A DNA stretch of 64,000 bases. Origin: an uncultured Verrucomicrobiae bacterium. GTDB lineage: Bacteria > Verrucomicrobiota > Verrucomicrobiia > Opitutales > JABDGR01. Of the stretch, positions 24,001-27,000 are shown one piece after another; the stretch's first letter is position 1; each line of letters starts with the position of its first letter. The position numbers were made by a program. The stretch lies in contig CAVXVB010000004.1 in assembly GCA_963765205.1 (NCBI GenBank), positions 207,266 to 271,265 of the forward strand, written 5' to 3'.

Positions 24001-27000
24001 GAACCATGGTAGTTGGCCTCCGGGCGGGGAAAGGGATGGGAGTGGGCTGGGAAAGAACGGGGATTAGACGGCCGCGGCGGTGGGCGCGGCTTCGATGACG
24101 CGGATGACGCGCCAGCGTTTGAGCTTGCTGATCGGACGCGTCTCCATGAGTTCGACTTTGTCGCCAAGTTTGCAGACGTTGGTCTCGTCGTGGGCGTGGA
24201 GCACCGTCTTGCGCTTGATTTCCTTTTGATAGATCGGGTGCGGGATTTTGTAGAAATACGTCACCTTGATCGTCTTGTCGCCGGAGCGGCTGGTGACAAG
24301 GCCGGTAATGTGTTTGCGCGTGGCGCGGGCGGTGGGAAGTTCGACGGACATGGGAGGGAAGGGGAAAATGGTAAATTACGAATTAAACGCGGAGCGCGCT
24401 TATTTGCTGGTGGCGGCGGTGGGCACGGCGGCGGCGAGTTCGCGCTGGCGCTTCAGGGTCTGGAGGCGGGCAATGTCGCGGCGGATCGAGCGGAAGCGGG
24501 AGGGGTTTTCCACCTGACCGCTGGATTGCTTGAGGCGCAGCCCAACCAACTCGTCGCGCTGCTCGACCAACTTGCGGTCGAGCTCGACAGGGGGGAGTTC
24601 CTTGAATTCTTTGGAGAGCATGGTGGAAGCGGAATGAAAGATGGAAGATGGAAAAAAAGCGGCTAGTGGAAGATGAGTTTGGCGGGGAGGAAGTGGGTTT
24701 GATTCTACCTTCTACCTCCTTCCTTCTCTATTCTAGTTTGCTAGAATTTCTCCAGCGCTTCGCGACTGATGAAGCGGCAGTGGAAGCCGAGTTTGGCGTC
24801 GGCGAGGGCCAGCGCCTCGCGCGCGGCGGAGGCGTTGACGCCACCGATTTCAAAGAGGATCGCGCCGGGCTTGATCACGGCGACGTAGAACTCGACGCCG
24901 CCTTTGCCGCGGCCCATGCGGGTTTCCGCGGGCTTTTTGGTGACGGGCTTGTGCGGGAACACGCGCATCCAGACTTTGCCGCGGCGGTTGAGGTGGCGGG
25001 TGATGGCCACGCGGGCGGCCTCGAGTTCGGCCGCGTGGAGCGCGCCGCGTTCGAGGGACTGGATGGCAAAGTCGCCGAAGGCCAGGCGGTTACCGCGCTT
25101 GGCGACGCCGCGAATGCGGCCTTTCATCACCTTGCGGTATTTCTGGGAAGCGGGTTGAATGTTGGCCATGACGGGGGAAAATTAAGAATTAAAAAGTAAG
25201 AATTAAGAAGGAGTCGGAGAAAAATGGCGGTCGTAGAGGCCAAAAACGGATGGCTGGGTGAAATGAGAGGAGGGTGCGTGGTTTTATTTTTTAATTTTTC
25301 CTTCTTAATTCTTAATTTCGCTTACAGCCCTTCCTCATCCTTGCGGCAGATCCAGACTTTGATGCCGATTTTGCCCGCGACGGTGTTGGCTTCGACGAAG
25401 CCGTAGTCAATGTTCGCGCGGAGCGTGTGGAGGGGGACGCGGCCGGTGCGGACAAGCTCGACGCGGGCGATTTCCGCGCCGCCGAGGCGGCCGGCGCAAC
25501 GCACGCGGATGCCTTCGGCTCCGAGCGCCATCGCGCTTTGGACGGCTTTTTTCATCGCGCGGCGGAAGGAGATGCGGCGTTCGAGCTGGAGCGCGATTTG
25601 TTCGGCGACGATGTAGGCTACGACGTCGGGCTTCTTGACTTCGTGGATGTCGAGCAGCACGTCTTTACCGGTGAGCTTGGCGAGGTCGGCCTTGATTTGT
25701 TCGAGCTGACGGCCTTTCTGGCCGATGACCATGCCGGGGCGGGCGGTGTAGATTTTGACGCGGACGCGGTTGCTGGCGCGCTCAATGAAGATGCGGGGCA
25801 CGGAGGCGTAGCGGAGCTTGTCCATCAGGTGCTCGCGGATGCGGTAATCCTCGTGGACGAGGAGGGGCAGCTCCTTCTTGTTGGCATACCAGCGGGACTC
25901 CCAGTTGCGACGAACAGAGAGGCGGAAGCCGATCGGATTGGTTTTTTGTCCCATGATGATGAAATGGCTGGCCGGTTACTCGGCGGCGGGGGTGGCGTTG
26001 TTGTCGGAAAGGATGATGCGGATGTGCGAGGTGTGCTTGTGAATGGGGTGGCCCGATCCTCGGGAAGCCGGGCGCATGCGCTTGAGGACGGAGCCTTGCT
26101 CGGTGAGGGCGCGCTTGACGACGAGGTTGGCCGAGGAAAGGCGGTGGTTGTTCTCCGCGTTGGCCACGGCGCTGACGAGCGTCTTGCGCACGAGGCGGGC
26201 CGTCTTGCGCGGGATGAACCGCAGCAGGTCGAGCGCTTCGGTGGCGGTCTTGCCTTGGATCACGCGCGTGATTTGCCGCAGCTTTTTAGGCGAGATGCGG
26301 ACGTATTTGGTGAGGGCTTGAACTTCCATGGCCGGAAATGGTGGAAAAAGTGGAGGAGAGCGGGTTATTGGGGCGACATCGAGGAGAGGCGGACTTCATC
26401 ACCCGGAACTACGATAATGTTCTCGCGATTGGTAATGAGGGCGGCGCAACGGGTATCCTCCGTGGCGACGACGACGAGTTGCGCGACCGTGGCGCCTTTG
26501 CGCTGGATGACGCAATCCACGCCGTTGCGGAAGCCTTGGTAGAGGCCGCCGTCGAGCAGAACCACATCGGCCTGGCCTTCGGTGATGTGGGCAATGTGCG
26601 CGCGGCCGGAAGGTTCGAGGGATTCGTCCACCCAGTCGGGATGATTGGGGTTGTGGGTGGGGCGGTAGGCGTCGGCGGGAAGCAGCGGCGGGCGCACGGG
26701 GGCAACCGACTGCGCCTGCGCCCAGCCGCCCGCGGCCAGCACAAGGGCGGCGGCGGTGAAAAGCACGGATGGGCGGAGGGTCGGCATGGTAAAATAAAAA
26801 AGACTTAGACCTTTTTCTGGGTGTGGGGGTTGTGGCCCTTGAAGATGCGGGTCGGGGCGAATTCGCCGAGTTTGTGGCCAACCATGTTTTCCGTGACATA
26901 CACGGGGATGAAGGCGTGGCCGTTGTGGACGTTGAAGTTCAAGCCGATGAAGTCCGGCGTGATGGTCGAACGGCGCGACCAGGTTTGGATCGGCTTGCGC

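Follow-up and report, generated by a model that had tools for sequence, protein, structure and literature searches.

Genes for non-ribosomal proteins are found inside ribosomal operons: secY, adk, map and infA lie in the spc operon and are near-universal. Few gene pairs in prokaryotes stay together as constantly as those for S19 and L22. Insertions in the ribosomal operons of Gammaproteobacteria and Bacilli, as described in the available part of one study (PMC8046335), lie between operons or in rpoBC and not inside the S10 operon. The accessible text of a second study proposes the lineage-restricted hypothetical protein CT421.2 as a marker of Planctomycetes, Verrucomicrobia and Chlamydiae (Gupta et al. 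2012, PMC3444138).

We analysed a gene, here called X, that lies between rpsS (uS19) and rplV (uL22) in an uncultured bacterium of the order Opitutales. The window, meaning the whole stretch of DNA that was analysed, is 64,000 nucleotides long. Like the spc genes, X appears to encode a non-ribosomal product, Sec-related or envelope-directed, whose gene has long been kept in a ribosomal operon, presumably with joint expression. Unlike them, it belongs to one phylum, within which the scan was made, and it sits inside S10, between S19 and L22. CT421.2 was considered as an identity for X and rejected: in the available parts of the sources it measures about 53 to >80 aa and occurs in Chlamydiae, and their CT421.2 passages mention neither S19 nor L22 (PMC3444138, PMC2474590).

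Among proteins of known structure, FlgT of the Vibrio flagellar H-ring (PF16538; PDB 3w1e and chains of 8z5n) has the barrel that superposes best on that of X, and both are exported, X by prediction. X differs from FlgT in being a single 83-residue domain after a linker, with neither the N-terminal nor the middle domain of FlgT, and in having ribosomal genes and no flagellar cluster as neighbours. Akkermansia, which carries a longer form of the gene, is presumably non-flagellated. MreC (PF04085; PDB 2j5u, 2qf4, 7eft and 6zlv) resembles the long relatives of X, with an N-terminal anchor, a coiled coil and a periplasmic barrel, whereas X has one barrel, no coiled coil in the window form and no mreBCD cluster. 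The true MreC of this genome is encoded elsewhere (G000:C9:506102-506572; PF04085, E 1.3e-27). The type IV pilus secretin-associated protein TsaP (PDB 6ve2 chain O, 3jc8 chain Ta) is periplasmic and has FlgT-like barrels; its identity to X, 21-24%, was the highest among the fold matches. X differs from TsaP in having no LysM domain, for which neither the 72 short nor the 8 long forms gave a match, and no adjacent pilus or secretin gene.

Gene X within the S10 operon

The genome-wide survey's note on this DNA had placed an extra ORF between rpsS and rplV, and the ORF was found there on the minus strand. The surrounding order is L3-L4-L23-L2-S19-X-L22-S3-L16-L29-S17-L14-L24, and the core L2-S19-X-L22-S3, also described in that note, was seen in 32 of 32 loci. 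The features are:

26805..27080, minus strand: rpsS (uS19), upstream neighbour of X, found in 148 of 151 order genomes
26788..26804, minus strand: rpsS-X spacer of 17 nt, T-rich, without a Shine-Dalgarno-like run, as for other genes of the operon
26365..26787, minus strand: gene X, 140 codons plus a TAA stop (26365-26367), ATG at 26787-26785, from translation
26713..26787, minus strand: signal-peptide-like N-terminus, residues 1-25, with R5, a hydrophobic core at about 8-22 and AQA at 23-25 followed by Q
26617..26712, minus strand: linker, residues 26-57, Pro-rich, pLDDT 40-57 (alignments A1, A2 and A5)
26368..26616, minus strand: predicted six-stranded beta-barrel, FlgT_C-like, residues 58-140 (AlphaFold2, VIA-align and hhalign)
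26330..26364, minus strand: X-rplV spacer of 35 nt, without a promoter- or terminator-like site
25976..26329, minus strand: rplV (uL22), downstream neighbour; X lies directly before rplV in every lineage examined

The start of X was set at ATG 26787 because 22 of 24 homologues align from the methionine equivalent to this ATG. The protein is therefore 140 aa long and the spacer to rpsS 17 nt. The GTG at 26766 chosen earlier, which gave 133 aa, falls 7 codons short, and of the spacers then reported as 35-38 bp only that on the rplV side stands. A search with its own sequence found X once in the genome, in line with the single copy per genome claimed earlier, here for the window genome.

X is more than a chance ORF: its GC3 of 0.79 lies among those of neighbouring genes (0.69-0.86), the ORF is kept at the same site in 72 genomes, and 64 pairs gave a median dN/dS of 0.129, the highest value being 0.71.

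The X strand between 25900 and 27200 shows no promoter- or terminator-like site, and an Rfam scan of window positions 21000-33000, run at E up to 1, returned nothing. All 72 short-form ORFs, those of the window type, start at most 50 nt from the S19 stop and end at most 68 nt from the L22 start. From this arrangement, X is probably co-transcribed with the ribosomal proteins from the S10 mRNA. Lacking a separate promoter or terminator, X should be produced in step with ribosome synthesis and hence with growth rate. No more than three metatranscriptome runs held about 5% of the sampled words; their contigs came from conserved ribosomal genes in relatives, reached low depth over X and left 26568-26745 uncovered, which is uninformative on X expression. 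The survey's suggestion of a factor made in fixed ratio with ribosomes keeps one half: production alongside the ribosomal proteins is probable, given spacers of 17 and 35 nt without a promoter- or terminator-like site, and a role in the ribosome is not upheld.

Predicted export and barrel fold

Signal peptides were judged by hydropathy, charge and small residues, and cleavage sites by rule of thumb. A charged n-region followed by a hydrophobic core stands at the start of all 72 short forms and of 38 of 39 longer or other relatives. The exception, L171, is a Kiritimatiellia form without a hydrophobic N-terminus at its called start. In X the best 11-residue hydropathy window had a mean of 2.65, and the N-terminus follows the Sec-type (SPase I) pattern, R5 coming before a core that spans roughly residues 8-22 and A-Q-A (23-25) before Q26, a layout conserved in alignments A1 and A2. 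The positive charges before the core favour an N-in, C-out orientation. There is no Cys in the first 91 residues of X and thus no lipobox. One relative (L026) has L-A-G-C, which is absent in its two nearest relatives.

The mature protein has a predicted pI of 5.17, compared to 10.07-11.68 for 11 of 11 ribosomal proteins of the operon. The 72 barrels had a median pI of 5.16, with 4 of 72 above 9. These results suggest that X is probably a Sec-exported periplasmic protein. The survey had itself named a cleavable-looking signal peptide as the point that would speak against a ribosomal role, and the universal signal-like N-terminus of the short forms bears it out. Two Akkermansia data sets were also searched: the supplement of an outer-membrane proteome has no rows for S19 or L22, and 12 of the 19 supplementary files of a sulfatase paper, those searched, held no match.

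AlphaFold2 placed six strands in X (residues 62-69, 75-78, 91-96, 99-109, 114-121 and 131-134; pLDDT 79-88) and gave pLDDT <50 for residues 1-36, in agreement with the low-confidence N-terminal part and six-stranded barrel predicted earlier. The linker ends in a conserved P-x-W-V-D-E-x-L-E-P stretch. It occupies the position of a coiled coil of about 130 aa in relatives outside Opitutales, to which the hhalign alignment spans the barrel alone. Three copies of the barrel (residues 48-140) folded together scored 0.08 against a mark of 0.42, which is evidence neither way.

As modelled, the barrel is closest to the C-terminal domain of FlgT, with MreC and TsaP near. In VIA-align, FlgT ranked top with the short model (8z5n, Z 10.8 over 78 residues) and with the long model (Z 10.6, rmsd 1.9 A, 73 residues, 20% identity, chain residues 290-377). 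MreC structures reached Z 8.0-8.1 with the short model and, over the two models together, Z 7.2-8.3. The best Foldseek PDB match of the short model had E 2.8e-3, close to the 2e-3 obtained before; the long model returned FlgT first (E 2e-4) and MreC at 8.6e-4. Unrelated ATPase crown barrels came within 1 Z unit of FlgT: the F1/V1 N-terminal barrels reached Z 9.8-10.3 with the short model, and the cytoplasmic N-terminal crown domains of F1/V1, FliI and HerA ATPases as a set Z 8.6-10.3. Domain II of translation GTPases (EF-Tu, SelB, IF2) matched more weakly, at Z 6.4-7.4. Since the fold is generic, recurring in cytoplasmic ATPase crowns and GTPase domain II, it does not by itself place X in the periplasm.

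Sequence comparison gave X no significant match in Pfam, NCBIfam or PDB sequences, as the survey had found for Pfam and NCBIfam. Pfam applied to the 72 short forms returned no family in more than 2 members, and the best hit of a PDB profile search with alignment A2, to TsaP over the motif that the two have in common, was non-significant at E 0.64. FlgT_C (PF16538) matched neither X, searched at E up to 10, nor any of the 72 short forms, searched at E up to 1. Four of the 8 long forms reached 14.3-20.9 bits, below the cut-off of 27. MreC models left X unmatched. Another four of 8, those with sub-threshold scores from the NCBIfam MreC models, had E 0.0016-0.45 and 9.8-17.8 bits against cut-offs of 243-385.

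Distribution and evolution in Opitutales and beyond

Gene X occupied the S19-L22 site in 71 of the 148 Opitutales genomes that yielded both S19 and L22. An HMM search detected it in 60 of 151 order genomes, directly after S19 in 58; another 13 had an S19-L22 gap of 346-375 bp encoding a diverged X. All 9 other family genomes were confirmed to carry it. Its spread over the other Opitutales families, put at 6 of 21 genomes in the earlier sampling, is far wider, and one genome then listed as lacking it (G024) has X by HMM (E 4.8e-10) and a 167-aa ORF in its locus (L072). The ORF was intact in 72 of 72 occupied gaps. In the 77 of 148 genomes without X the S19-L22 spacer measured merely 2-182 bp, and ten such short gaps held no ORF >41 aa and no remnant of X (best E 1.6). 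The X-free genomes include, by HMM, all sampled members of three families with genomes of 0.8-1.4 Mb (f3, 0/7; f7, 0/6; f19, 0/6). As a side observation, a candidate two-hairpin element precedes rplV in f22.

X evolves quickly, at 33-65% identity where S3 is 67-98% identical. The barrel is its best conserved part and appears to be under purifying selection: its motif keeps 20-30% identity across the order, and among 17 short-form pairs dN/dS was 0.11-0.42 in all but one, which stood at 0.71.

Contrary to the earlier claim, the gene is not order-specific. In other orders, 33 of 33 genomes examined (11 families) hold a form of 234-340 aa in the same slot, with a predicted signal peptide, a coiled coil and the same barrel; according to source labels, Akkermansia is among the carriers. 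Twelve loci of other classes (Kiritimatiellia by source labels) carry the gene between S19 and L22, and four more have it immediately ahead of L22-S3, where the roughly 4 kb upstream contain neither S19 nor L2. Short and long profiles were aligned by hhalign over the barrel at 98.8% probability (E 5.7e-17). The long-form model has helices at 39-90, 100-141 and 147-168, then a barrel at 182-254, and the part between signal and barrel varies from 0 to about 150 aa across forms. Families f103, f107 and f108 gave 0 of 27 matches.

As an addition to the S10 operon, X is restricted to one lineage, which is the phylum and not the order. It has both marks of a verrucomicrobial 'pre-rplV' exported barrel family, namely a barrel homologous to that of the long forms and a gene directly before rplV. 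X is likely the shortened orthologue, of Opitutales type, of an exported protein whose gene lies directly upstream of rplV throughout Verrucomicrobiota. Within Opitutales the coiled coil of about 130 aa has been lost, and the gene is gone altogether in about half of the sampled genomes. The family lacks a Pfam or NCBIfam model. Its members are named 'hypothetical protein' or mislabelled in every case met, and a literature search of partial coverage found no description of a pre-rplV family. Paralogues have a plain N-terminal transmembrane segment, and their neighbourhoods (dnaX, radC, YjeF, pgi, lpxK, a pseudopilin) showed no functional theme.

Alternative explanations and biological meaning

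We favour, at a probability of about 0.7, the reading that X is transcribed together with the ribosomal proteins, passes through Sec to the periplasm and is not part of the ribosome. X would be translated from the polycistronic S10 mRNA and exported by the Sec pathway, and its signal peptide would be cut near AQA(25), leaving about 115 aa of acidic protein in the periplasm. The mature protein would consist of a flexible Pro-rich tether and the FlgT_C-like six-stranded barrel. By analogy with FlgT, TsaP and MreC, the barrel may dock on another envelope component, either peptidoglycan-associated or part of an outer-membrane assembly. X output would track ribosome synthesis and growth rate.

The survey's proposal of an accessory ribosomal protein, or more widely of a cytoplasmic ribosome-associated factor, would require that the N-terminus is no export signal and that the barrel binds rRNA or a ribosomal protein in the manner of OB, SH3 or KOW barrels. 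The fixed place of the gene in the S10 operon across the phylum fits this proposal, as do the prevalence of small beta-barrels among ribosomal proteins and the matches to domain II of EF-Tu, SelB and IF2. We nevertheless regard it as highly improbable: signal-like N-termini occur in all short forms and nearly all other relatives, mature X has a pI of 5.2 where every ribosomal protein of the operon exceeds 10, more than half of the order genomes dispense with X, among them all sampled members of f3, f7 and f19, the sequence changes much faster than S3, and the best fold matches (FlgT, MreC, TsaP) are periplasmic. An uncleaved N-terminal anchor in the cytoplasmic membrane, with a periplasmic barrel that organises cell-wall synthases or the Sec/YidC neighbourhood as an MreC-like scaffold, would agree with the anchor, coiled coil and barrel of the long forms, with their sub-threshold NCBIfam MreC scores and the MreC structural matches, and with the transmembrane segment of the paralogues. 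Such a scaffold seems unlikely for X, whose core is short (about 15 residues with Gly-Gly, then A-Q-A) and looks cleavable, which has one barrel where the matched MreC chains use two, and which has no mreB or mreD nearby in a genome that encodes its true MreC elsewhere.

X could also be a decaying passenger, a shrinking and functionless remnant kept in Opitutales since clean deletion from the operon is hard; loss of the coiled coil in the order, the many genomes without the gene, the lack of any remnant in the ten short gaps and the fast evolution are compatible with decay. Against it stand the intact ORF in every occupied gap, the low dN/dS of all but one short-form pair and the barrel motif retained across the order, and we consider decay very unlikely. 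Alternatively, X might act in cis, its signal sequence, translated in the middle of the S10 mRNA, holding the mRNA, and with it the synthesis of ribosomal proteins, at the membrane, with the barrel secondary. The signal-like N-terminus is indeed the most constant architectural feature, next to a middle part of highly variable length, and X remains beside rplV in loci that have lost S19; however, the barrel is the best conserved part and appears to be under purifying selection, and half of the order does without the gene, so that we give action in cis hardly any credence.

On the exported-protein reading, the window gene is no longer an 'order-specific new ribosomal protein' but the truncated local version of an exported protein found across the phylum. 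If kept in the S19-L22 slot throughout the phylum, the gene of such a predicted exported, non-ribosomal protein would be a rare, clean synapomorphy, and its placement hints at coupling of envelope and ribosome synthesis on one transcript. Because Akkermansia carries the gene, and papers refer to a genetic system for the genus, the question is testable there; Coraliomargarita and Ruficoccus are cultured carriers of the short form. A bolder and doubtful proposal is that X is a major structural element of the periplasm, functionally a stand-in for abundant Lpp- or MreC-type tethers or scaffolds, with its copy number set directly by the ribosomal operon and its gene locked before rplV since before the Verrucomicrobiae-Kiritimatiellia split. 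If this were true, envelope building would be hard-wired to ribosome output, and Opitutales would offer a natural experiment, an order that came to do without the coiled-coil spacer and often without the gene itself.

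Gene X in the S10 operon

X lies between the genes for S19 (rpsS) and L22 (rplV). Its coding sequence and those of the surrounding S10 operon are arranged in the window as follows.

29129-29848, minus strand: L3
28466-29089, minus strand: L4
between L4 and L2, minus strand: L23
27113-27973, minus strand: L2
26805-27080, minus strand: S19
26365-26787, minus strand: X
25976-26329, minus strand: L22
25322-25954, minus strand: S3
downstream of S3, minus strand, in this order: L16, L29, S17, L14, L24

X is a real gene, as the genome-wide survey's note had proposed. The start chosen there (GTG at 26766) was 7 codons short: an in-frame ATG is present at 26787, and the alignment with 22 of 24 homologues begins at its methionine, giving a protein of 140 residues. 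X begins 17 nt past the S19 stop and ends 35 nt ahead of the L22 start, and its GC3 of 0.79 matches that of neighbouring genes (0.69-0.86). No promoter-like or terminator-like sites were found on the minus strand at 25900-27200, nor any Rfam match within window positions 21000-33000. The layout suggests that X is co-transcribed with the S10 operon.

The 30 nt upstream of X are pyrimidine-rich and lack a Shine-Dalgarno run. The same was seen at all 12 operon genes whose starts were checked, X included (23370-29848, minus strand), and translation initiation in this operon seems, from sequence, to be independent of Shine-Dalgarno pairing. A 156-aa ORF (26338-26808, plus strand) runs antisense to X, and several more long ORFs overlap operon genes. 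We rejected these as spurious frames of the kind common in GC-rich genomes; in searches, none was conserved as a protein.

Distribution of X and its longer relatives

A single-sequence search of the 5.8-billion protein set matched 24 proteins of 83-147 aa, and an exhaustive representative search returned 95 clusters, 2 of them spurious repeat proteins. X is present in 10 of 10 genomes of the family, counting the window's own. An HMM from a short-form alignment (A1) was run on 151 genomes of the order and detected X in 60 (E up to 0.01); the count was 148 for S19 and likewise for L22. By hand comparison of coordinates, 58 of the 60 matches lie directly after S19, and the remaining two are weak and elsewhere (G117, E 0.004; G070, E 0.005). 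In a further 13 genomes, which gave no HMM match, 346-375 bp separate S19 from L22, and all 13 encode a 109-122-aa protein of the same layout there. In total, X occupies the slot in 71 of 148 genomes. The other 77 have gaps of just 2-182 bp, and the 10 of these inspected (61-179 bp) held no X remnant or ORF longer than 41 aa. X is thus absent from half of the order, including small-genome families of 0.8-1.4 Mb (f3, 0/7; f7, 0/6; f19, 0/6). Genome G024, in which the note had reported X as not found, carries a 167-aa copy by HMM and by the ORF at the locus.

The gene order L2-S19-X-L22-S3 holds at all 32 loci compared. Copies of X inside the family are 41-65% identical to that of the window (S3, 91-98%), and copies outside it 33-40% (S3, 67-76%). 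One genome with 4% contamination, G135, matched X on two contigs: C92 ends (at 17690) after S19 and X, and L22 lies on C227, which begins within X. An assembly break or the presence of two strains, not a duplication, is the probable cause.

Four genomes of family f22 without X carry a conserved two-hairpin RNA-like element in their 75-122 bp S19-L22 spacer. Its 3' end lies about 15-25 nt ahead of the rplV start, and RNAalifold gave 19 pairs, 6 with compensatory changes. A covariance model from the four elements recovered it in G125, which belongs to f22 and retains X; there it lies between X and rplV (E 3.6e-9). Neither the window nor any of 130 other loci yielded a match at E up to 0.01. With five sequences known, the element may be a family-specific rplV leader. 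Its positions, all outside the window, are listed by locus.

L048: 394-452, minus strand
L049: 354-409, plus strand
L050: 382-439, plus strand
L051: 352-402, plus strand
L075: 692-738, plus strand

X had been described as order-specific. This does not hold, as the same slot carries a longer homologue in other orders and other classes of the phylum. Within the class, a profile of 72 short forms (A2) matched 250 of 301 genomes; in those outside the order the match was limited to the barrel and fell inside open frames of 240-400 aa. In all 35 loci sampled from other orders (33 genomes, 11 families), the S19-L22 gap measures 741-1116 bp and holds one ORF of 234-340 aa, in which a hydrophobic N-terminus is followed by about 130 aa of helix and then the barrel seen in X. 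Source labels of these long forms include Akkermansia, Verrucomicrobium sp. and Chthoniobacterales. The X barrel is homologous to the long-form barrel: in profile-profile comparison the two aligned over the 83 barrel columns (probability 98.8%, E 5.7e-17). By parsimony the long form would be ancestral, with the coiled coil lost in the window's order.

The long-form profile (A3) matched 150 of 251 genomes at the phylum level. In other classes, 12 loci have an X-like gene of 160-301 aa between S19 and L22, with Kiritimatiellia as the source label for three of the families. At four more (L178 in G434, L179 in G582, L180 in G540 and L181 in G486; families f102, f123, f131 and f134) the X-like gene directly precedes L22-S3 (rplV-rpsC), and tblastn found neither S19 nor L2 (rplB) within about 4 kb upstream of it. 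The operon seems to have been broken there exactly ahead of X, which stayed with rplV. As the gene keeps its place before L22 where S19 and L2 are not found, rplV is its constant neighbour, and the position of X before rplV is fixed over a phylum.

Seven profile matches sited elsewhere in their genomes look like paralogues, among them a tandem pair in Akkermansia-labelled genomes and a copy in the window's own genome. The tandem pair consists of proteins of 257-283 aa (L122/L182, G412:C1 about 3330082-3331082; L184, G223:C1 about 1635227-1636941), with an N-terminal transmembrane segment, a coiled coil and the same barrel, adjoining dnaX, radC and a YjeF-type gene. The window's own genome has a second, long-type member on a 3957-bp contig (L176, about G000:C3:2922-3512, minus strand, bounds approximate; A3 E 5.8e-9, open frame 286 aa). 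It has no S19 or L22 nearby, and a longer opposite-strand ORF overlaps it (greedy ORF calling).

Export signal, fold and proposed role

The 140 residues of X divide into three parts.

residues 1-25: Sec-type signal-like segment with R5, hydrophobic core at about 8-22, then A-Q-A before Q26; no cysteine
residues 26-57: Pro-rich, low-confidence stretch
residues 58-140: six-stranded barrel (strands 62-69, 75-78, 91-96, 99-109, 114-121, 131-134; block pLDDT 79-88)

Model pLDDT is below 50 over residues 1-36. In each of the 72 short forms, one or more K or R residues precede the hydrophobic core, and the mean hydropathy of the best 11-residue window is 1.39-3.09 (median 2.39). The core is present in 38 of 39 further forms (minimum 1.56), the exception being L171 at the start called for that ORF. 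From these features, X is predicted to be exported by the Sec pathway and cleaved close to residue 25. Mature X is acidic, with a pI of 5.17 compared to 10.07-11.68 for 11 of 11 ribosomal proteins of the operon. X is under purifying selection: median dN/dS (NG86) was 0.129 and the maximum 0.71 over 64 pairs at 70-97% identity; relatedness among these pairs means that the count overstates independence.

In Pfam only the signal region matched, at chance level (DUF6197, 14.5 bits; cut-off 24.6), NCBIfam gave nothing, and the best PDB sequence match had E about 1. Foldseek with the short model had no match below E 0.001. VIA-align placed FlgT (LPHT ring) at the top (Z 10.8), followed by the N-terminal crown barrels of V1/F1, EscN, FliI and HerA (Z 8.6-10.3), MreC (Z 8.0-8.1) and TsaP (Z 6.6-6.9, 21-24% identity). 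The long model (L140; mean pLDDT 81, barrel about 95) pointed the same way with more clarity: the C-domain of FlgT (chain residues 290-377) aligned at Z 10.6 with rmsd 1.9 A over 73 residues and was first in Foldseek (E 2e-4), with MreC at E 8.6e-4. Pfam FlgT_C and the NCBIfam MreC models each touched 4 of 8 long forms, all below cut-off; a true MreC is encoded elsewhere in the window's genome. The ESM Atlas held only unnamed verrucomicrobial clusters, and the nearest named cluster (40% FlgT_C, score 0.82) is a lead only.

The PVC signature protein CT421.2 was considered as X and rejected, being a different, smaller protein in the portions of PMC3444138 and PMC2474590 available. No description of X was found in the available portions of the literature on Verrucomicrobia rpsS/rplV and on S10/spc cluster insertions, PMC8046335 included.

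The note had read X as an accessory ribosomal protein. That is unlikely given a signal-like N-terminus, an acidic mature protein, frequent loss within the order and the kinds of protein that share the fold. By its likeness to FlgT, TsaP and MreC, the barrel of X may instead have a docking role.
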